From: an uncultured bacterium
GTDB lineage: Bacteria; Patescibacteriota; Minisyncoccia; Phycocordibacterales; PALSA-1337
DNA length: 64,000 nt
Direction of reading: 5' to 3'
Assembly (NCBI GenBank): GCA_963848635.1
Contig: CAWKEA010000005.1
Span: forward strand, 175,341 to 239,340
The notes beneath the pieces were generated by a model, which worked only from the letters and a program-made list of their open reading frames with translations, did no database searches and was not told the DNA's origin. Below are positions 1 through 9,645 of the stretch, piece by piece (position 1 is the first letter of the stretch; every line of letters starts with the position of its first letter). Both the position numbers and the translations under genes were made by a program.

Positions 1-354
1 AAAAGGGACAACTGCGCAGGAGCCGTCTTATTCTTGGCATCTATGTCCTTTAAAAATTGAAAATATACCAAAGGCTTTTCATCAGTGGTTCTAGCCAATT
101 CTTCATAATCATTCAATGCCCTCAGGAGCTCCTGTACGTCATTGAGATATTTCTTCTTTGGAGTGTCATATGTCTTTGCAAAGGAATCGAACTTTTTTTC
201 GATCGATCTGATGTCAGATTCCATCCTGCTGTCATTTTCAGAAGCGTATAAAAGACCGAGGTTCCATTGGTGTTTATTTAGTTTTTTCATTATTATATAA
301 AGCAAGATAGCACAACCAAATCGCGAAGGATAGGCTTCCGCATGCGGGTCTGCC

Positions 355-948
355 TCACGCGAACTTCTTCAAAACCTCGAAGTCTTTTTGCAAAGTATCT
401 CGCATTCCGCCGTTGTAGAGTGCGGCGGCTGGATGGTAGAGGGTGACGATCGACAGCGGACCATAGGGCGCCTTCGTCTCGAATACTTTTCCGTGGATCT
501 TTGAGATCGGTTCGAGCTCGAGATCGAGGCCGAATTTTTTCATGACATACTTCATGCTGTATCGGCCGAGAGTGGCGATGACCTTCGGCTGGATTATCTC
601 TATCTGCCGATCGAGGAACGGCCCATAGAGGTCGATCTCGCCCTGCGTCGGGTCGCGATTCTCCGGCGGACGATCCTTGACGATATTGGTGATGTAGACC
701 TTGTCGCGCGTGAGGCCGATCGATCCGATCAAGAAAGTCAAGAACTTCCCTGCCGCGCCGCAAAACGGCTTGCCCGTCAGCGCTTCGTTCTTGCCCGGCG
801 CCTCGCCGACGAACATGATATGCGCATCGTGGCTTCCTTCGCCTATGACGGGAAAATATTCATTCTGCGTCCGATACTCAAAAAGCGGCGACTCCTCGAA
901 AGCAAAGAGCTCGTCGCGGACCTTTTTCATCTCTTCGAATTTCGACAT
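355..948 (-). CDS. Uracil-DNA glycosylase, family 4
   Basis: Translation carries 'MFVGEAPGKNE' (the GEAPG motif) and the C-terminal 'HPAAALYN' typical of family-4 UDG. 197 aa. Confidence 0.85.
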   Translation of the reverse strand: MSKFEEMKKVRDELFAFEESPLFEYRTQNEYFPVIGEGSHDAHIMFVGEAPGKNEALTGKPFCGAAGKFLTFLIGSIGLTRDKVYITNIVKDRPPENRDPTQGEIDLYGPFLDRQIEIIQPKVIATLGRYSMKYVMKKFGLDLELEPISKIHGKVFETKAPYGPLSIVTLYHPAAALYNGGMRDTLQKDFEVLKKFA

Positions 949-1026
949 GATGCTATTTTAACATGGAAATCGGCTCGGAAACGCGCTTCAAAAAAAGGCA
1001 CCAATGATGGCCTGCGCCCGCTCATT

Positions 1027-1113
1027 CGAGATTTGATCTTGATTTTTGAGATCCGATCTTGTTATTCTGAGATCCGATCTTGATTTGTTCGTACAAGATC
1101 CGATCTCGTTTTA
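1027..1113. repeat. Array of four ~22-bp units each containing AGATCCGATCT (two GATC sites) in the udg/comEC divergent promoter
   Basis: Direct reading: gagatttgatcttga / gagatccgatcttgt / gagatccgatcttga / caagatccgatctcgt. The same 20-mer (19/20 identical) occurs twice inside holB at 11229-11270. Confidence 0.75.
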
Positions 1114-1118
1114 AAAAA

Positions 1119-1165
1119 ACTTTAGAATTATTTTAACTTTTCTTAATGGGCTTTTTGTATACTGC
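1119..1165 (+). promoter_or_regulatory. Conserved promoter module, copy 1 (cTTTAGAATTATTTTAACTTTTCTTAATg..tttttgTATACT) 7 nt upstream of the comEC ATG
   Basis: Near-identical module at 4251-4294 (reverse), 18796-18837, 44334-44378 (reverse) and 58891-58949. Ends in a TATACT/TATAAT -10-like hexamer. Confidence 0.6.
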
Positions 1166-1171
1166 ACGGAT

Positions 1172-3463
1172 ATGCCGATCGACAAGATATTCTATTCTGC
1201 ATGCCTCGGCTTTTCGGCCGGCGTTTTGTGGCGCTCCTTGGCGCGTCTCGACCTTATAGACGTCATATGCATCGGCTCGATATATCTTCTGCTTGTCTTT
1301 CTTTTCTCGATCATTTTAAAGAAAGACTGGGACATCCTTATATCGGTTTTCACGATCGCCCTTGTCCTTGGAATAGCGAGATTCCAGATAGCAGATATAC
1401 AGCCGCCAGCTATCTTTGAAGACCAAGTGAATAAAACCGTTTCTTTTTCTGCCATGATCGTTGACGAACCGGCGAGAAATGCGAGCCAGACGAAATTGAT
1501 CCTCGAGACGAATGGCTCTCTCGAGTCGGCTACAAAAATCACTGGCGATACAAAAGACGTCCCCGACGCTCACACTGAAATAGGCCAAGCAAAAACTGCC
1601 GATATGCGCATTAAAACAAATACAAAGACTGAAAAAGATCCGCTCCGAGTCGGCATCGTCGTCTTTTCAAAAGGAAACGGCGGATTCCATTACGGCGACC
1701 TTGTCAAAGTGACTGGCAAATTAGAAAAGCCCGCTGATTTCATGACAGACCAGGACATGGAATTCGACTACGTGGACTATCTGCGCAAAGACGGGATCTT
1801 TTACACCATTCATAATCCTGATATCAAGATCCTTTCATCCGGTCACGGCAACCCTATCAAGCGCTGGCTCTTCTCGTGGCGGGAAAGATTCGATACAGCC
1901 ATTGATACGGCGATACCCTCGCCCGAATCAACAGTGATCGGTGGCATCATCATCGGCGAACGCTATGCCTTCAGCGAACAATTGCGCCAGATATTCATGG
2001 ATACGGGCACCATCCACATCGTCACTATCGGCGGCTATCATGTCACTCTCGTGGCTGAATGGATCATGAAGATATTCTCGTTCCTACCGAGATTCGCAGG
2101 CTGGGGAGCCGGCATCGTCAGCATATTCCTCTATGTCATCGTCACGGGCGGAGCAGAGACATCAATCCGCGCAGGGATCATGGCGGCTCTCGCCATTTTT
2201 GCCACTGCGACCGGACGCACATACGCTTCCGGCCGAGCGCTCGTCCTCGCCGCGATCGTCATGATATGCATAAATCCGTTCGTCCTCGTCTACGACATAT
2301 CGTTTGATCTGTCGTTCATGGCCACGATCGCCATCATATTCCTTTCGCCGCGTCTCGAGCCGTATCTCGAATGGATCCCATGGAAATGGCTGCGCGGAAT
2401 CGTCACTGTCACCGTTTCGATGTATGCTTTCGCGTTGCCCTTCGTGCTCTATCGCATCGGCAATCTCTCGCTCGTATCACTGCCCGCGAACATGGCTATC
2501 GTGCCCCTCATGCCCGCGACTATGATCGCCGGATTCATCACCGGTTTCGCGGGGCTGATATCGCCCATGCTTGCTGTCATTCCCGGCAAGATCGCTTACA
2601 CGCTCCTCTACTATCAGATCGGCGCCGTGGCTCTCCTTGCAAGATTGCCGTTCGCCGCAGTCGCCATCCAGAATTTTTCACTGCCGATCGTCATCGCCAT
2701 TTACGCGTGCTTCGGTTGTATCTTTTTAAAGGGAGACAGTAAGGCAAGAAAAGCCGCAGGCGCGGCTCTCGGGCCGCAAAGCCTGACGGCCAAGCGTCTT
2801 TCGAAGCTCAATGTTCTCATGCTTTCGATCCCCCTCATCATCACTTTTTCAGCCGCAGGTTTTCTGTATTACAGCCATTACCGGTCAGACCAAGCTTCCT
2901 TGAAAGCCATTCAAAAGCTTCTTTACGAAACAACGACTGCTGACCCTTCGGAAGTATTTTCTTCCACATCGACGGCTCATGTCTTTATGCCGAATCCAAG
3001 AACTGCTTCAAGCGATTGCAAAATAAATGGTGTTTACCCCGACCACACGTGCACACCCGGCGCCGTATTCACCGACGCGACAACAGAGGATGTCTGCGTC
3101 AAAGGCTATACAGCGACCGTCAGAAACGTGTCGGAAAAGACAAAGAAACAGGTATTCGAAGAATACGGCATAGCCTATCCGCAACCGGCTGGCGCGTACG
3201 AGGTCGACCATTTCATTCCCCTGGCTCTTGGCGGGGCGAACGATATCGCCAATCTTTTCCCAGAGGCGGCCGCACCGACGCCGGGATTTCACGAAAAAGA
3301 CGTCGTCGAAGTCTTCTTGCAAGAAGAAGTGTGCTCCGGCCACGCCGCGCTTGCCGCCGCTCAACGGCAAATCTCCACCGATTGGCTGGCAGTCTATGAG
3401 AATATCCCGTTCGAAGACATTCAAAAGATCAAGAATAAGTATGGCGGGAGCGCGGTTCAATAA
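1172..3463 (+). CDS. comEC: ComEC/Rec2 DNA-internalisation channel with a C-terminal HNH-like nuclease domain (no metallo-beta-lactamase domain)
   Basis: 763 aa. N-terminal OB/DUF4131-like region, then a polytopic competence domain. The C-terminal ~150 aa carry 'YEVDHFIPLALGGANDIANLFP' (HNH D-H...N...N signature) where the usual MBL domain would be. Confidence 0.8.
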   Translation: MPIDKIFYSACLGFSAGVLWRSLARLDLIDVICIGSIYLLLVFLFSIILKKDWDILISVFTIALVLGIARFQIADIQPPAIFEDQVNKTVSFSAMIVDEPARNASQTKLILETNGSLESATKITGDTKDVPDAHTEIGQAKTADMRIKTNTKTEKDPLRVGIVVFSKGNGGFHYGDLVKVTGKLEKPADFMTDQDMEFDYVDYLRKDGIFYTIHNPDIKILSSGHGNPIKRWLFSWRERFDTAIDTAIPSPESTVIGGIIIGERYAFSEQLRQIFMDTGTIHIVTIGGYHVTLVAEWIMKIFSFLPRFAGWGAGIVSIFLYVIVTGGAETSIRAGIMAALAIFATATGRTYASGRALVLAAIVMICINPFVLVYDISFDLSFMATIAIIFLSPRLEPYLEWIPWKWLRGIVTVTVSMYAFALPFVLYRIGNLSLVSLPANMAIVPLMPATMIAGFITGFAGLISPMLAVIPGKIAYTLLYYQIGAVALLARLPFAAVAIQNFSLPIVIAIYACFGCIFLKGDSKARKAAGAALGPQSLTAKRLSKLNVLMLSIPLIITFSAAGFLYYSHYRSDQASLKAIQKLLYETTTADPSEVFSSTSTAHVFMPNPRTASSDCKINGVYPDHTCTPGAVFTDATTEDVCVKGYTATVRNVSEKTKKQVFEEYGIAYPQPAGAYEVDHFIPLALGGANDIANLFPEAAAPTPGFHEKDVVEVFLQEEVCSGHAALAAAQRQISTDWLAVYENIPFEDIQKIKNKYGGSAVQ

Positions 3464-3480
3464 TAGAAGTCGGACCCCGA

Positions 3481-3503
3481 GTGTCAAGATGACATCTTGA
3501 CAC
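3481..3503. repeat. REP-like palindrome GTGTCAAGATGACATCTTGACAC (copy 1)
   Basis: Perfect 10-bp inverted arms in the comEC/LTD convergent gap. Same core as seven other loci. Confidence 0.8.
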
Positions 3504-3519
3504 GAAATTTAGATATATC

Positions 3520-4206
3520 TCACTTCGTTTTTTTTAACTTTTTTGAAAAAAACGGTGCGACAAAAGCCGCGCCATTCTCCGCTTTCGGAGTGCCCCCAAT
3601 AGCCGACGAAGTATGCCAGCCGAGCGTCTTTGGATCGCGCTCCATCGTCCTCTTGGTCGCGTCATCGCCCGCAGGCCATCTTGAGCTGGCAACAACCTGA
3701 TCGATCAAGGAACAATACCTGTCAAAGAGCCGGAAGCTGTCGCCGGCATTTTTGATTATGCCGACGAAAAAATTGTCCGCTTTGATGCTCGGCAAAAAAT
3801 CCATTCCGCCTCGTTCCAAAAGATAGAGCCCTCCCGCCGCGACCTTTGCCCCGCTCCGGAAGACGACTTTTATCTTGCCGCTCGCATTCGCGAGCTCCCA
3901 GCCGCCGATCGAAACAGTGCTCGAGGAGACGTTCTTGAGCTCGATCCACTCGTGATTCGAGCTCGTCGCATCGCCCATCCAGGCGATCTCGTTCATGATG
4001 ACAGGAACATGCTCCGGGATCTCTGTCGTGTCGAAAGCGCAGTTCGTGATCGGAGCCGTCGAAGCACTGCTTACGCCCGTCGATGAAGACGCTTGACCGA
4101 CGCTATCCACCAGATTTTTGACGCTGTTATTCCTTGAAAAATAAAAAGCCATCCCGGCAATAGCTAGTACTGTTATACAGGTGAGGATCGGGTGTTCGCT
4201 GAACAT
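3520..4206 (-). CDS. Lamin-tail-domain (LTD) protein with N-terminal membrane anchor
   Basis: 'NEIAWMGDATSSNHEWIELKN' is the LTD signature. N-terminal TM helix. 228 aa. Confidence 0.7.
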   Translation of the reverse strand: MFSEHPILTCITVLAIAGMAFYFSRNNSVKNLVDSVGQASSSTGVSSASTAPITNCAFDTTEIPEHVPVIMNEIAWMGDATSSNHEWIELKNVSSSTVSIGGWELANASGKIKVVFRSGAKVAAGGLYLLERGGMDFLPSIKADNFFVGIIKNAGDSFRLFDRYCSLIDQVVASSRWPAGDDATKRTMERDPKTLGWHTSSAIGGTPKAENGAAFVAPFFSKKLKKTK

Positions 4207-4250
4207 GAAAGTTATACGGCTTTATCTCCATCGATATCATCTACACGCGC

Positions 4251-4294
4251 AGTATACGAAAAATTCATTAAGAAAAGTTAAAATAATTCTAAAG
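4251..4294 (-). promoter_or_regulatory. Conserved promoter module, copy 2 (reverse orientation), upstream of the LTD gene
   Basis: Reverse complement reads ctttagaattattttaacttttcttaatgaatttttcgTATACTgcgcg, near-identical to copy 1 including the TATACT. Confidence 0.6.
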
Positions 4295-4316
4295 AAACCC
4301 TAAAATGACACATTAC

Positions 4317-4380
4317 ATAGGTCCGCATAGGTCGGACCTTGGTACATTGATATATAGGTCGCTATATAGGTCGGGCCTAT
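4317..4380. repeat. Cluster of four ATAGGTCG(G/C) motifs (two direct, one inverted pair)
   Basis: ataggtccgcataggtcggacc ... tatataggtcgctatataggtcgggcctat. Lies between the 4-gene operon end and the LTD promoter. Confidence 0.6.
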
Positions 4381-4433
4381 GTAAACTAAGAAAAAACCGC
4401 CCCGTTTTTAATGAGGTGGCCTATGATCGTCGG

Positions 4434-4946
4434 TTATTTCGTCGTGACAGAGAAATCGAGAGCTCGAACAGAAAGCTCCTGCGGCAAATAGCGTTTCTCG
4501 ATGCCCCAGCGGTCGCAGTTGCCATGCTCCCATCGCGCGCCAAACGATGATTCCCAACCATGGATGAAGTGAAGCGCACTGACTTTGCCGGAAAGGAATA
4601 CCTTCTCGTAAAAGTCATTCAGGATCGGCGTGCAATATTCTTCCGCCGGATTCTGTCTGTGCCATTCGAGGTAGAGCTCGACCATCTTATCCTCGAAAGG
4701 CATCTGGCTGAAGATATTCCGATGCGATTCGCCGATGAGGATCTCGATGACGCCTTCGAAGACTTTCCGATTGCCCTGAATAGTGCCGACGCCGCCAGTC
4801 GAGATCGGTCCAGACACCATTTCGGCTTTTCCAGGCGTACGGCGAAGGATATCGAGAGCGATCGCCGCCAAATCGACGAACGACTTCGCGTCCTTGAGAG
4901 CATCGTGATCCCGAGGGTTCCAATGTCTGTAATGTTCAATGTTCAT
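4434..4946 (-). CDS. Hypothetical protein, possibly SLOG / nucleoside 2-deoxyribosyltransferase-like (DUF4406-like)
   Basis: 170 aa. 'MVSGPISTGG' resembles the glycine-rich strand-1 loop of NDT-like / DUF4406 proteins. Assignment from memory of the family motif only. Confidence 0.45.
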   Translation of the reverse strand: MNIEHYRHWNPRDHDALKDAKSFVDLAAIALDILRRTPGKAEMVSGPISTGGVGTIQGNRKVFEGVIEILIGESHRNIFSQMPFEDKMVELYLEWHRQNPAEEYCTPILNDFYEKVFLSGKVSALHFIHGWESSFGARWEHGNCDRWGIEKRYLPQELSVRALDFSVTTK

Positions 4947-4993
4947 ATTGTCGAAAATCTACTCCACATACAGCTAAAATGCAAATCTAAAAA

Positions 4994-5362
4994 TCATTTT
5001 CCGGATCTGTGTTTTTTCTTGATATCCTTGTATTTTTTTGAGATATCACTTCCGCTGATAGCGCTTGGGGGATATTTCTTTGCGGCCGCCGAGAGCTTGT
5101 CATGAACGATCTCTCGGATATCGACGTTGAGGACGAGCGCCATCGCGATCGCATAGACGAAGACATCCGCCAATTCCTTGACGATCTCTTTCTTTATCCG
5201 TGGATCCTTTACGACCTCTTCGCCGAAGAAATTCTCCCACTGGAAATGTTCCAGCAATTCGGCGGCTTCGATGACGATCGATTTCGCCAAGTCCGCAGGA
5301 GGCTGATCGGACCAACCCCGCTCTGCCATGAATCTTTTGACTTCTTCTCTGGAGTTTTCCAT
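4994..5362 (-). CDS. MazG-like nucleotide pyrophosphohydrolase
   Basis: 122 aa all-alpha protein. 'EAAELLEHFQWE...ELADVFVYAIAMA' matches the MazG/HisE EExxE..D core. Confidence 0.7.
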   Translation of the reverse strand: MENSREEVKRFMAERGWSDQPPADLAKSIVIEAAELLEHFQWENFFGEEVVKDPRIKKEIVKELADVFVYAIAMALVLNVDIREIVHDKLSAAAKKYPPSAISGSDISKKYKDIKKKHRSGK

Positions 5363-5392
5363 GACGTTTTTTATGAGGGATATGCTAGCATT

Positions 5393-5767
5393 TCAGCTCT
5401 TAAAAAGATACTTGTTCATTATATATCCATTCTTGTCTTTCTTTTGTTCAAGGAGGATGCCTCCCGCTGATTCGATGACTTTTTTTGAAGGAAAATTAAG
5501 ATCGTCGCAGACGACTGTTATCCTAGCGATGCCAAGATCATGCGCTTGCGTGATCGTATCATTGAATAGTTTTGTTCCAAAGCCTTTGTGCTGAAAATCC
5601 GGATAGATTTCATAATAGATATGGCTCTCAAAACCTTCCGGCATTTCATCGCTTTTTTGCGCAGTGAGCCTTATTTGAGAATAACCGACCGGAATGTCGT
5701 CATCATTGAACAATCTATATACTAACGTATTCCCTTTATTGAGCTTTTCTTTAAATGCAAACCTCAT
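5393..5767 (-). CDS. GNAT family N-acetyltransferase
   Basis: 124 aa from an internal ATG (MRFAFKEK...). 'IYPDFQHKGFGTKLF' is the acetyl-CoA-binding motif A. The upstream part of the listed ORF is antisense to the next gene. Confidence 0.7.
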   Translation of the reverse strand: MRFAFKEKLNKGNTLVYRLFNDDDIPVGYSQIRLTAQKSDEMPEGFESHIYYEIYPDFQHKGFGTKLFNDTITQAHDLGIARITVVCDDLNFPSKKVIESAGGILLEQKKDKNGYIMNKYLFKS

Positions 5768-5769
5768 GG

Positions 5770-6612
5770 CTATATCTTGCACATCAACCGGGCCTCGTTG
5801 AGGATCTTGTCTGCCTTGACGCCTTTGACGCCAGCGTCTTCGAGATATCCGGGATATTTGACGAGATCGCGGCACAGGACGATGCCATTTTGGAAGAGGT
5901 TGCGGCGGATTTCGCCGTCGACGGAAGCGAGAATAGTGAAAGGATAGAGCGAAAGCTCCTCGATGATCTGGTGCAAATTGCCTGAATGCGGATAATTCCA
6001 GCCGATCAAGGGGAGTCCCGCGCATTGGGCGTACTTGATGGCTTCGGAAGTGAATTTGGTATTGGTGATGAGCCAGCCTTTCGAGAGCATGCGCTCGCGG
6101 CCGCCAAAGGTGAATTTACGGCTCGCGAGATCCTCGAAGCGCGCTTTGACGTACAGGGCGACTTTCAGATCGGACTTCAGGCCGAATTCATTGTGGAATT
6201 TAGCTTCGACCATATCGAGCTTGTCGTCTTTCCAGGCGACGACATCAATCTCGTGCTGGACGCAGTGGCCTTCGACGATGACATCTGTCGTCGTCTCGTA
6301 CCCCCAGGCCTTGAAGATTTCGGCCACGAATTTTTCGAACGGATAGCCGTTCGGTCCGAGCTCGGCCAAAGCGCGGCGCATGGAATACCGTGCGGCGGCA
6401 TGGTGCAGATTCGACGAGCGGAGGTAATCAAATGCTCGGGCATAGATGAGAGCCGTCGACATGCCGTCTTTTATTTCGCTCTCCACTCTGTCGACGATCT
6501 CCTCGATGGCTTCTTTCGATCCGCCGGCGGCTCGAAGCGATTCAATGAGCTTGTTCTCCTCGAAAAGCTCTTTTTCGCCGTTCGATTTTGTGACATTGAT
6601 GAGGCGATTCAT
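5770..6612 (-). CDS. ATP-cone domain fused to Mrr-like restriction endonuclease domain
   Basis: The N-terminal 'INVTKSNGEKELFEENKLIESLRAAG' is an ATP-cone. The C-terminal 'GHCVQHEIDVVAWKDDKLDMVEAKF' fits a PD-(D/E)xK Mrr_cat core. Confidence 0.65.
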   Translation of the reverse strand: MNRLINVTKSNGEKELFEENKLIESLRAAGGSKEAIEEIVDRVESEIKDGMSTALIYARAFDYLRSSNLHHAAARYSMRRALAELGPNGYPFEKFVAEIFKAWGYETTTDVIVEGHCVQHEIDVVAWKDDKLDMVEAKFHNEFGLKSDLKVALYVKARFEDLASRKFTFGGRERMLSKGWLITNTKFTSEAIKYAQCAGLPLIGWNYPHSGNLHQIIEELSLYPFTILASVDGEIRRNLFQNGIVLCRDLVKYPGYLEDAGVKGVKADKILNEARLMCKI

Positions 6613-6744
6613 TGGGAATATTGTAGCATGTCGCCCAAGAAAAAACCTTAGATAACTTGAAAAGAAAAACGTATATTTTATGTAAATAATTTCGCTTCTG
6701 TGTCCTTATCCCCACATTGTTCACTTTTCCGATTGCTTTTTCCC

Positions 6745-6772
6745 CTTGACCTATTTCGAGGCATGCTACAAT
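6745..6772 (+). promoter_or_regulatory. Putative sigma70-type promoter for dnaB (TTGACC-N15-tgcTACAAT), ATG at or near +1
   Basis: Read directly. Extended -10 TGnTACAAT. The ATG at 6779 follows 6 nt later. Confidence 0.35.
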
Positions 6773-6778
6773 CAGTGC

Positions 6779-8194
6779 ATGGCAGAGACGACAAAATCTC
6801 CTTACTACAAGACATCCGACCTGCGCATACCGCCGCAGTCGCTCGAGGCGGAGCGCGCTCTCCTCGGCTCGGTGATGATGCGGCCCGAAGTCATCCACGA
6901 GATCATCGATGTCGTCTCAGACAGGACCTTCTATTCGGATCGTCATCGCCTGATCTGGCTCTCTATGCTCGAGCTCCACCAAAAAGCCACGCCGATCGAC
7001 CTGCTCTCGCTCTCCTCGAGGCTCAAGGAAAAAGAACTGATCGAAACGGTCGGCGGCATGACCTATCTGACCGAATTGGTCCAAAGCGTGCCGTCATCGG
7101 CCAACGCGAAATATTACGCGGAGATAATCCAGAAGAAACAGCTCATGCGCGACCTCATCAGCGCCTCCGAATACATCGGCAATCTCGGCTTCGATCAGGA
7201 TGGAGACCTCGAAGAGACATTGGATAAGGCGGAAAAGAGGATATTTGACGTGACCAATTTTGCCGGCAGTCAGCACAAGTTCATCGCTCTGAAAGACACC
7301 CTCGTCGAAGCATGGGAGCGCCTCGAAAAGCTCCACGAGACTCGCGGCGAATTGCGCGGCATACCGACCGGCTACAAGGAGCTCGACAACAAATTAGCCG
7401 GCTTCCAAAAGTCAGACCTTATCATCCTCGCCGCCCGGCCATCCATGGGAAAAACGTCGCTCGCGCTCGACATCGCCCGCAAGGCGGCCGTCCTCCACAA
7501 TGTATCCGTCGGCATATTCTCCCTGGAAATGAGCTCGCAACAGCTCGTCGACCGCATGCTCGCGGCAGAAGCATCAGTCGACGCCTGGAAATTGCGCACC
7601 GGCCATAACTTGTCCATCGAGCACGATTTCAAGGCGATTCGCGACGCCATGGACCGCCTCTCAAAAGCGCCGATCTATATCGACGACCAGGCGGCCAACA
7701 ATATTCTAAAGATGCGCGCCGTCGCTCGCCGGCTCAAGAGCGAGAAAGGCCTCGGCCTTATCGTCGTGGACTACTTGCAATTGATGGTGCCGACGAATGC
7801 GCGCCACAACGACAACATGGTTCAGCAGGTCACTGAGATTTCGCGCTCGCTCAAACAGCTGGCGCGCGAATTGGAAGTGCCCGTCCTTGCCCTATCACAG
7901 CTGTCTCGCGCCGTCGAACAGCGCGGCGAAGGCGGCCGTCCGAAACTATCCGACTTGCGCGATTCCGGTTCCATCGAGCAGGACGCCGACGTGGTCATGT
8001 TCATCCATCGCGAGGACAAATACAACAAAGACTCGGGCAAGCCGAATATCGCCAATATCATCATCGAAAAGCACCGCAACGGCCCGACAGGCACGGTCGA
8101 ATTGTACTTTGACGAGAAGAAAACTACATTCCTTTCCATCGAAAAGGCCGATTTTGGAGATTTTGACAAAGGCGGGAACGATCAGCCATTTTAA
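6779..8194 (+). CDS. dnaB: Replicative DNA helicase DnaB
   Basis: N-terminal 'ERALLGSVMM' followed by Walker A 'ARPSMGKTSLAL' and the RecA-like core. 471 aa. Confidence 0.9.
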   Translation: MAETTKSPYYKTSDLRIPPQSLEAERALLGSVMMRPEVIHEIIDVVSDRTFYSDRHRLIWLSMLELHQKATPIDLLSLSSRLKEKELIETVGGMTYLTELVQSVPSSANAKYYAEIIQKKQLMRDLISASEYIGNLGFDQDGDLEETLDKAEKRIFDVTNFAGSQHKFIALKDTLVEAWERLEKLHETRGELRGIPTGYKELDNKLAGFQKSDLIILAARPSMGKTSLALDIARKAAVLHNVSVGIFSLEMSSQQLVDRMLAAEASVDAWKLRTGHNLSIEHDFKAIRDAMDRLSKAPIYIDDQAANNILKMRAVARRLKSEKGLGLIVVDYLQLMVPTNARHNDNMVQQVTEISRSLKQLARELEVPVLALSQLSRAVEQRGEGGRPKLSDLRDSGSIEQDADVVMFIHREDKYNKDSGKPNIANIIIEKHRNGPTGTVELYFDEKKTTFLSIEKADFGDFDKGGNDQPF

Positions 8195-8247
8195 TAATGT
8201 AAAATTAAAAAATCAAAAGGTAAAATGACATATTAAAATTTAAAAAT

Positions 8248-8556
8248 ATGAAACTATACAAAAATTGGAGTCTTTGGTACTGGATAATCATTTTTGCTTA
8301 TTGGTTTTTTTATCAAATTCCACTATCCAACACTTTTACTCCTAGTACACTAGGAGTTCCAAATTCAGCAGATTTTGTACTCTACGCAATTTCTGATATT
8401 ATCCCCGCTTTCTATATTTGGTTTATCATAAAAATAATTCTCAGTATTTTAAAGAAGATAAAAACTCAACAAAATAAAGTCAATTATTCTATTCTTTTAG
8501 TTTGTGTTATTCTCTCTAGTGTTCTTATTGCATGGTATGTGTTTAAGTTATTTTAA
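8248..8556 (+). CDS. Hypothetical small membrane protein (cassette cargo)
   Basis: 102 aa, three predicted TM helices, very AT-rich codon usage. Confidence 0.45.
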   Translation: MKLYKNWSLWYWIIIFAYWFFYQIPLSNTFTPSTLGVPNSADFVLYAISDIIPAFYIWFIIKIILSILKKIKTQQNKVNYSILLVCVILSSVLIAWYVFKLF

Positions 8557-8577
8557 GTGTGACATAAGAACATCAAA

Positions 8578-8952
8578 ATGGAAAATGACAGAGAAAAATT
8601 CAAAAATGAATTCAAGAAAAGGTTGTATGCTTGGGTGTTACGACTTGTAAAATTCATTGATTCATTAAAGAAAGATTCAACTTCGTTAGTTATTGGCAAA
8701 CAGTTATTACGAAGCGGAACAAGCATTCTTGCCAACTATATCGAAGCACATTCTGCAAGCTCAAAAAGAGATTTCGGTAACTTTTTCAATCATTCACTTA
8801 AATCTGCAAATGAATCAAAGGTCTGGCTTGCAATAATTCGTGATACTGACAAAGGTAACCAGAGAGAAGTATCGTGGCTCTTGAAAGAGTTGACTGAAAT
8901 ATCAAATATCTTTGCTTCAAGTCTATTAACACTTCGAGGTAAAAAGAAATGA
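8578..8952 (+). CDS. Four-helix-bundle protein (TIGR02436-like; 23S rRNA intervening-sequence protein family)
   Basis: 'LVIGKQLLRSGTSILANYIEAHSASSKRDFGNFFNHSLKSANESKVWL' matches the family signature. Confidence 0.7.
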   Translation: MENDREKFKNEFKKRLYAWVLRLVKFIDSLKKDSTSLVIGKQLLRSGTSILANYIEAHSASSKRDFGNFFNHSLKSANESKVWLAIIRDTDKGNQREVSWLLKELTEISNIFASSLLTLRGKKK

Positions 8953-9012
8953 ATATTTTGTCATTTTACATTGTAATTTTCCCTTTTGATTTTTAATTTT
9001 TACATTCTTATT

Positions 9013-9645
9013 ATGGATCCCGTCAACAAACTCATCGAGCTCTTCTCCGAATTCCCCGGCATCGGGCCGAGGCAGGCGCGGCGGTTCGCGTATTTCATTT
9101 TGACGCGCAACAACGGCTTTTTGGATGATTTTACAAGGAATATCGCGGCGGCAAAGAAATCGTTGCGGGTTTGCTCGATGTGCCAGCGCTTCTTTACTTC
9201 TGCGGAGGGTAGACCTCCGCAGGCCGCAAAGACATGCCCCATCTGCTCTGACGACACGCGCGACCAGGCCAGCCTCATGATCGTCGCACGCGACAGCGAT
9301 TTCGAAGCGATAGAAAAGAGCGGCGTCTATCATGGCCTTTATTTCATCCTCGGCGGCAGTGTGCCGATCCTCGAAAAAGAGCCGGAAAAGAGAGTGCGAT
9401 TGGCGGAGCTCAAAAAGCGAGTGCAAGGCGTTGGTCAAGATGTCATCTTGACAGAGATCATCCTCTCTATGAGCGTCACGCCTGACGGCGAGCATACGGC
9501 AGAAGTCGTCAAAGCTTTCCTTGAAAAGTCGATCGACGCTGAAAAAGTCAAAATAACTGTCTTGGGCAAAGGCCTTTCGACGGGAACGGAGCTGGAGTAT
9601 TCTGATACGGAGACGCTCAAGAATGCGCTCAAAAATCGGGCTTGA
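9013..9645 (+). CDS. recR: Recombination protein RecR
   Basis: 'FPGIGPRQARRFAYF' HhH, C4 zinc finger 'CSMCQ...CPICSD', Toprim 'MIVARDSDFEAIEKSGVYHGLYFILGG'. Confidence 0.9.
   Translation: MDPVNKLIELFSEFPGIGPRQARRFAYFILTRNNGFLDDFTRNIAAAKKSLRVCSMCQRFFTSAEGRPPQAAKTCPICSDDTRDQASLMIVARDSDFEAIEKSGVYHGLYFILGGSVPILEKEPEKRVRLAELKKRVQGVGQDVILTEIILSMSVTPDGEHTAEVVKAFLEKSIDAEKVKITVLGKGLSTGTELEYSDTETLKNALKNRA
9434..9452. repeat. REP-like palindrome GTCAAGATGTCATCTTGAC inside the recR CDS (encodes GQDVILT)
   Basis: Perfect palindrome in-frame within recR. Confidence 0.8.

Follow-up and report, generated by a model that had tools for sequence, protein, structure and literature searches.

A minus-strand cluster of four genes in a Patescibacteria genome: a probable composite of a housekeeping-like ATP-cone nuclease gene, a predicted nucleotide-sanitation gene pair, and a stray acetyltransferase gene

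The stretch of DNA analysed here (the window; 64,000 nucleotides of contig CAWKEA010000005.1 in assembly GCA_963848635.1, from an uncultured bacterium of the Phycocordibacterales) contains four co-directional open reading frames (ORFs) on the minus strand, p1 to p4, at 4434–6612, with intergenic gaps of 2, 30, and 47 bp (Table 1). They encode an ATP-cone nuclease, a GNAT acetyltransferase, a MazG-like protein, and a DUF4406-like protein, respectively. A preliminary description had presented them as a closely packed operon that is divergent from dnaB and followed by a repeat cluster, and all of these points were confirmed, as were its domain guesses for the four proteins (by Pfam matches for p1–p3 and by PF14359 matches among the relatives of p4). 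The same description regarded the four genes as one system, possibly a defence module, and this part was not supported. It appears to us reasonably probable that the cluster is a composite of a housekeeping nuclease gene (p1), a nucleotide-sanitation pair (p3 and p4), and a stray GNAT gene (p2), which are probably co-transcribed.

Table 1. Genes and sequence features in and around the four-gene cluster (positions in the window).
Feature	Position	Strand	Length	Remark
p1, ATP-cone + Mrr/AF1548-type PD-(D/E)xK nuclease + C-terminal HhH-like (Rad51-N-like) DNA-binding domain	5770-6612	-	280 aa	
p2, small orphan GNAT acetyltransferase	5393-5767	-	124 aa	
p3, MazG-like (DCTPP1/RS21-C6-type) all-alpha nucleoside-triphosphate pyrophosphohydrolase	4994-5362	-	122 aa	
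p4, divergent DUF4406 / nucleoside 2-deoxyribosyltransferase (NDT)-fold protein, predicted nucleotide N-glycosidase (DNPH1-like)	4434-4946	-	170 aa	
Uracil-DNA glycosylase (UDG)-superfamily glycosylase	355-948	-		Pfam UDG, 9.4e-33
PepF	3-275			after UDG, as in other species
dnaB	6746-8194	+		divergent from p1
Lamin-tail-domain (LTD) protein	3520-4206			beside cluster
ComEC	1172-3463			beside cluster
ATAGGNC/GNCCTAT heptamer cluster, six copies	4317-4425			between p4 stop and LTD gene start

Three Pfam domains, all above threshold, were identified in p1: an ATP-cone (residues 5–81, 3.4e-9), Mrr_cat (residues 89–200, 2.5e-7), and AF1548-like_C (residues 223–275, 1e-6). The N-terminal part shows the ATP-cone fold of ~90 residues with the conserved phosphate-binding Lys, and the following part shows the restriction-endonuclease-like fold of the AF1548-like/Mrr_cat type with its D...(D/E)xK motif. 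An alignment was obtained between p1 and the solved structure of AF1548, a hypothetical protein of Archaeoglobus fulgidus (1Y88; E value, 1.7e-36), but only through p1 residues 94–276, and the AF1548 chain has no ATP-cone; the match gives the fold and active site of p1 and says nothing of its biology. AF1548 was predicted in 2007 to be restriction-endonuclease-like, together with its catalytic residues (PMC1821046). These residues map to D123, E136, and K138 of p1, which do not vary among all 81 species sequences compared. In the ATP-cone, K9, G12, F17, and K21 are invariant in all 80 species sequences compared, and a working nucleotide site is likely because of this invariance. The Arg of K-R-D-G, which we take to be the usual ATP-cone motif, is replaced by Ser or Ala. 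Judged by these residues, p1 is probably an intact nuclease with a functional nucleotide-sensing domain. An NrdR-like repressor, the alternative that had been raised for p1 in the preliminary description, was ruled out: the ATP-cone begins at residue 5, neither a Zn ribbon nor a Cys4 motif is present, and the C-terminal part is a nuclease, by domain and structure matches, with an invariant catalytic triad. p1 thus differs from NrdR and ribonucleotide reductase (RNR) in that it lacks the Zn-ribbon domain and in that its output would be a nuclease in place of a repressor or a reductase.

p3 matched PF12643 with 51.3 bits (cut-off, 27; E value, 1.4e-13) and was assigned to the MazG-like proteins; its translation shows two acidic motifs, IEAAELLE and ELADV. 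Its PDB matches include an archaeal pyrophosphatase (4qgp, 1.3e-12) and dCTP pyrophosphatase 1 (DCTPP1, also RS21-C6; 5.3e-10). p4 itself has no Pfam match, and single-sequence and profile searches of PDB with p4 returned nothing meaningful; 13 of 37 aligned relatives match PF14359 (DUF4406; best E value, 8.4e-8). The p4 family comprises 151 close relatives and 892 representatives at 50% identity, and grades into DUF4406. Its invariant motifs are GPIsTGG-G, FsQmPfE, and S134-x-G136-x-x-W139-E140, of which S134, G136, and E140 are invariant in 37 of 37 sequences, and p4 was assigned the Rossmann-like fold of the NDT type. The spacing of these three residues fits S-x-G-x-x-x-E, which we take to be the motif containing the catalytic Glu of DNPH1 and NDT; this correspondence is a lead and does not amount to a test.

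The cluster was compared with 173 related loci (given L numbers below), i.e. 80 species-level loci seeded with p1, 80 metagenomic loci seeded with p4, and 13 loci around close relatives. All four genes were found together in none of the 173 loci, and they therefore do not represent a conserved operon. The preliminary description had itself stated that its proposal would fall if the four genes never co-occurred elsewhere, and the idea of a single four-gene system is abandoned here, as the GNAT gene, moreover, has no homologue and has a foreign base composition. p1 is accompanied by p4 in 7 of the p1-seeded and 19 of the p4-seeded loci, and the triple p1-MazG-p4 occurs in four loci (L063, L100, L133, and L154). 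In relatives whose p1 is 86–88% identical, p1 and p4 are directly adjacent or are separated by a NUDIX gene. The closest syntenic relative (L098) retains the order dnaB | p1 ... p4 ... LTD-ComEC of the window, with a NUDIX gene replacing GNAT and MazG, and the order in L088–L090 is rpoBC-p1-p4-PemK-LTD...ComEC. The arrangement p1-p4...LTD-ComEC is kept in the closest relatives (L088–L090, L096, and L098) and not in other Paceibacteria. p4 relatives with only 33–45% identity still adjoin p1 (L116, L117, L119, L120, and L161), so that the p1-p4 association is either long-lived or has arisen repeatedly. Several lineages repeat the order p1-(nucleoside triphosphate [NTP] pyrophosphatase)-p4-UDG, and a looser thematic link between these genes remains. 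L098 also encodes, at 6612-7391 between p4 and PemK, a 260-aa protein with a sub-threshold PRA-isomerase-like match (TIM-barrel type) that is absent from the window.

p2 matched Acetyltransf_3 (32.3 bits; cut-off, 25.4) and Acetyltransf_1 (29.8 bits; cut-off, 20.7), with the C-terminal two-thirds of the profiles covered, and contains the acetyl-CoA loop QHKGFG (Q/R-x-x-G-x-G/A), as expected for a GNAT protein. The mechanically called ORF of p2 runs to 6025; since the added part lies over p1 in a different frame and reads as meaningless sequence rich in Arg and Pro, the ATG at 5767 was taken as the real start. A search of 5.8 billion proteins for relatives of p2 returned only p2 itself, and the GNAT gene is absent from all 173 related loci. 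Its GC content is 38.4% (41.6% at third codon positions, GC3), whereas those of the flanking genes are 49–54% (GC3, 61–70%). Because of the lack of relatives and the foreign base composition, p2 looks recently inserted, and it is probably a recent foreign insertion that lies outside any conserved unit.

p1 relatives are present in at least 582 species-representative genomes of Patescibacteria. In the p1-seeded loci, which are the best 80 matches and, with few exceptions, carry a Patescibacteria or candidate-phylum label, p1 belongs to a same-strand array that contains the genes for a sigma factor, DUF8128, YceG, MnmA, p1, UDG, PepF, and AlaRS. On the same strand, MnmA is encoded directly upstream of p1 in 73 of these loci, and UDG, PepF, and AlaRS are encoded in 50, 48, and 56 loci, respectively. 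Of 70 informative loci, 48 have UDG downstream of p1 in the same orientation, 24 of them within 150 bp (often at a distance of 1–13 bp or overlapping) and 24 further away. The window keeps the order p1 ... UDG-PepF, with UDG displaced from p1 by ~4.8 kb of inserted genes. In 37 loci that hold all markers, the median pairwise identities of p1, MnmA, and AlaRS are 54.5, 56.0, and 56.3%, respectively. None of p1–p4 matched NCBIfam. PHROGs yielded only matches to the ATP-cone of RNRs encoded by phages, to a generic acetyltransferase, and to a pyrophosphatase, leaving p4 unmatched, and no relatives of p1 or p4 were found in 2.9 million viral contigs. With the PADLOC-DB v2 models, p1 gave weak partial matches that cover the nuclease core only (E values from 1.9e-5 to 1.3e-3), p2, p3, and p4 gave none, and none of the four proteins showed the significant full-length component matches by which a system is called. 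From its synteny, its AlaRS- and MnmA-like divergence, the weakness of the PADLOC matches, and the absence of NCBIfam and viral matches, p1 behaves like a vertically inherited, housekeeping-like core gene of Paceibacteria, the opposite of the pattern of a mobile defence gene. In the literature searched, which concerned AF1548, ATP-cone nucleases, and DUF4406, no description was found of a UDG-coupled core gene of Paceibacteria that encodes an ATP-cone-AF1548-HhH nuclease, nor any functional study of AF1548 or the DUF4406 family; the 2007 prediction for AF1548 was the single pertinent item. The translation of the UDG gene of the window contains a GEAPG motif resembling that of family 4 and lacks the N-terminal Cys pair that presumably serves the Fe-S cluster of canonical family-4 enzymes. 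In L065 (8764-9693), directly downstream of p1, UDG is fused to 6-O-methylguanine methyltransferase (MGMT, with a PCHRV motif).

Where UDG is not adjacent to p1, the slot between the two genes contains genes for Cas4-like PD-(D/E)xK proteins (seven cases), NUDIX proteins (six), p4 relatives (approximately seven), stand-alone MGMT (two), MazG-like proteins (two), an HD protein, an Exo_endo_phos nuclease, and others; one slot-encoded protein, which may or may not be a p4 relative, matches PF05014. The p1-UDG slot thus collects DNA-repair and nucleotide-sanitation genes in different lineages, and this accumulation probably accounts for p1-p4 adjacency above chance. In L110 (1401-2448) and L111 (5992-7079), p1 and UDG are separated by a tandem pair of DUF4406-like paralogues that have diverged from each other, an arrangement that suggests subfunctionalization, perhaps toward different substrates. 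Apparently solitary PemK/MazF-like toxin genes adjoin p1 or p4 in L088 (8514-8972), L091 (8415-8804), and L098 (7592-8110), and in L019 (581-1915) and protein P0159 the toxin frame continues into p1 as one ORF of 444–447 aa.

The p3-p4 pair was also found without p1, directly behind mreB and with the same ~48-bp spacer (L095), and relatives of p3 and p4 overlap by 4 bp in the distant loci L121 and L154. The most frequent immediate same-strand neighbours of p4 relatives are ATP-cone/Mrr genes (8), MazG-like genes (7 upstream and 4 downstream), MazG (2), NUDIX (6), and HD phosphohydrolase genes (4–5). Fusions of MazG and DUF4406 in a single ORF were identified in three loci (L128, 450-1220; L160, 2371-3138; and L165, 1015-1782), and a fusion of DUF4406 and NUDIX in one (L151, 5989-6897); in the library at 50% identity, which is independent of these loci, 4 of 22 long members of the p4 family carry NUDIX and 1 carries MazG. 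These fusions are Rosetta-stone evidence for the function of DUF4406. Because two unrelated pyrophosphatase folds interchange beside, or fused to, an NDT-fold enzyme, consecutive reaction steps are the simplest explanation. p3 and p4 form a pair that is functional, portable, and separate from p1. Joint action of DUF4406 enzymes and NTP pyrophosphatases, as indicated here by genomic evidence, is likewise undescribed in the literature searched.

Given these contexts, we propose the following scheme. p1 would act as a DNA nuclease, with a non-specific HhH-type DNA-binding tail, in housekeeping repair or DNA turnover beside UDG; such a role is the most likely one because the conserved partner of p1 is the adjacent UDG gene. 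The ATP-cone may switch p1 on or off according to the level of ATP or dATP, by analogy with RNR and NrdR. A nuclease gated by nucleotide state had been suggested in the preliminary description, and the suggestion is reasonable, with the ATP-cone and catalytic residues found invariant; the gating itself is argued from the analogy. p3 would convert non-canonical (deoxy)nucleoside triphosphates to the monophosphates and pyrophosphate, and p4 would then cleave the N-glycosidic bond of the monophosphates, yielding a base and (deoxy)ribose-5-phosphate, the substrates of both enzymes being presumed. The p3-p4 cassette would have landed in the p1-UDG slot, and p2, the GNAT gene of foreign composition, would have been inserted between p1 and the cassette.

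The same proposed order of reactions (NTP to monophosphate to base and sugar phosphate) is found in the pair DCTPP1 and DNPH1. p3 is homologous to DCTPP1, and p4 is a member of the NDT/DNPH1 fold family, but in its DUF4406 branch, not in Pfam Nuc_deoxyrib_tr. The bacterial genes lie side by side or are fused, whereas those for DCTPP1 and DNPH1 in mammals are unlinked. The DNPH1 step reportedly follows that of DCTPP1, as a sanitizer of the salvage pathway in mammals. DCTPP1 converts dCTP and its analogues to dCMP (PMC11183266). Taken together, p3-p4 resembles sanitation of the DCTPP1/DNPH1 type, and p1 resembles ligand-gated PD-(D/E)xK nucleases.

Several points weigh against the composite reading. 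The functions of p1–p4, as well as that of AF1548, are predicted. The match of p4 in a Foldseek search against PDB was not significant, and the equation of E140 with the catalytic Glu of NDT and DNPH1 comes from the motif spacing that we have assumed, not from a superposition. As the 80 p1-seeded loci are those that match the query best, the uniformity of the p1 neighbourhood may be overstated. Co-transcription of p1–p4 is deduced from gene spacing. Finally, adjacency of p1 and p4 in 19 of the 80 p4-seeded loci is far above that expected from random placement and leaves room for a direct functional link.

A different reading of the same neighbourhoods is DNA salvage, in which p1, gated by ATP or dATP, would degrade imported, foreign, or damaged DNA for the nucleotide pool of bacteria that lack de novo nucleotide synthesis, and MazG or NUDIX, DUF4406, UDG, and MGMT would rid the pool of modified or deaminated nucleotides brought in by this route. 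The neighbours of p1 and p4 are indeed nucleotide-pool sanitizers, the cluster adjoins the genes for ComEC and the LTD protein in the clade of the window, and a role in taking up DNA from the host has been proposed for comEC in Patescibacteria (bioRxiv 10.1101/2024.03.08.584096). However, the ComEC adjacency is limited to this clade, and elsewhere p1 mostly lies between mnmA and UDG; the HhH tail and the tight partnership with UDG suit repair at least equally well, and processive DNA degradation by p1 is an assumption. We therefore regard salvage as unlikely. If it were true, p1 would be the nuclease counterpart of RNR regulation in ultra-small, nucleotide-scavenging bacteria.

Less likely again is pure juxtaposition, according to which p1 would be unrelated to nucleotides and to its neighbours, its ATP-cone would be a relic, and the proximity of p1 and p4 would reflect one ancestral insertion that has been inherited. 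Twenty-one of the 70 informative p1 loci lack a nearby UDG gene, p4 accompanies p1 in only the small fraction of p1-seeded loci given above, and most p4 relatives lie in unrelated contexts, all of which would be expected under this explanation. Nevertheless, the invariance of K9, K21, G12, and F17 argues for a working nucleotide site, and the p4 relatives that still adjoin p1 at 33–45% identity point to an association that has lasted long or has arisen more than once.

The defence module of the preliminary description, in which p1 would be an abortive-infection or restriction effector triggered by phage-altered nucleotide pools and the MazG, NDT-like, and GNAT proteins would deplete or alter nucleotides, is in our view quite improbable. 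The PADLOC matches of p1, to the nuclease domains of PDC-S02, CARF-PDDEXK, and ZorD, and the frequent presence of PemK/MazF-like toxin genes nearby would fit such a module. These matches, however, extend over the nuclease core only and are not shared by p2, p3, or p4; the four-gene set is never repeated in the 173 loci, viral relatives of p1 and p4 are absent from the contigs scanned, and p1 is syntenic with mnmA, UDG, pepF, and alaS and diverges at the rate of AlaRS and MnmA. No methyltransferase gene is present among the genes at 1-9645, and a specificity domain is also absent. p1 shares the catalytic domain Mrr_cat with Mrr and Type IV restriction enzymes, and its close relatives have been named 'restriction endonuclease' by NCBI annotators, but p1 has neither the N-terminal modified-DNA-binding domain of Mrr nor a restriction-modification partner, and its distribution is not patchy; its C-terminal domain is HhH-like, and synteny is seen in 73–80 of 80 loci, neither of which is as expected for a restriction-modification or Type IV system. 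p1 is thus unlikely to be a restriction enzyme. In comparison with the ligand-gated PD-(D/E)xK nucleases Can2/Card1 and NucC and with the repair nuclease NucS/EndoMS, the sensor of p1 is an ATP-cone, not CARF or SAVED, a CRISPR or CBASS context is lacking, and the gene is housekeeping-like and syntenic, not located in a mobile island. A nucleotide-modification pathway resembling phage hypermodification or nucleoside-antibiotic clusters with MilB-like hydrolases, in which MazG, the NDT-like protein, and GNAT would build or exchange a modified base and p1 would discriminate modified from unmodified DNA, is highly improbable, as the GNAT gene is unique to this genome, genes for a glycosyltransferase, hydroxymethylase, kinase, or polymerase accompany the pair in no locus, and the replacement of MazG by other hydrolases (NUDIX and HD) suits catabolism over synthesis.

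Regarding the remaining features of the region, the number of terminator-like sites does not exceed that in shuffled sequence, and no such site is located between the four genes. As no above-chance terminator-like site separates the genes, their co-transcription is plausible. Two ORFs on the opposite strand (4560-5105 and 5986-6651) were taken as frame shadows, given the conservation of the minus-strand proteins. The heptamer cluster downstream of p4 consists of four direct copies of ATAGGTC(G/C) at 4317-4373 and two inverted copies of GGCCTAT up to 4425 (~110 bp in total); ATAGGTCS has six matches in the whole window, four of which fall within 57 bp. A similar cluster is absent from all 173 related loci, and the heptamer cluster of the window is not part of a conserved unit; it could be an operator or an iteron-like site. 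Between dnaB and recR, a low-GC island at 8248-8952 (28–34% GC against 50% in the window) contains a small membrane-protein ORF along with a gene for a 23S rRNA intervening-sequence protein (PF05635) and is probably another insertion.

With these results, the supposed new four-gene defence system is removed as a false lead. From their adjacency, the presence of NUDIX at the site otherwise taken by MazG, and the gene fusions, DUF4406 proteins are probably nucleotide N-glycosidases that act directly after an NTP pyrophosphatase; if so, p3-p4 would correspond in bacteria to sanitation by DCTPP1 and DNPH1. The ATP-cone-nuclease-HhH protein is conserved at the level of AlaRS across hundreds of Paceibacteria species, usually coupled to UDG, and points to an unstudied, nucleotide-regulated step of DNA maintenance in organisms with minimal repair and nucleotide metabolism.

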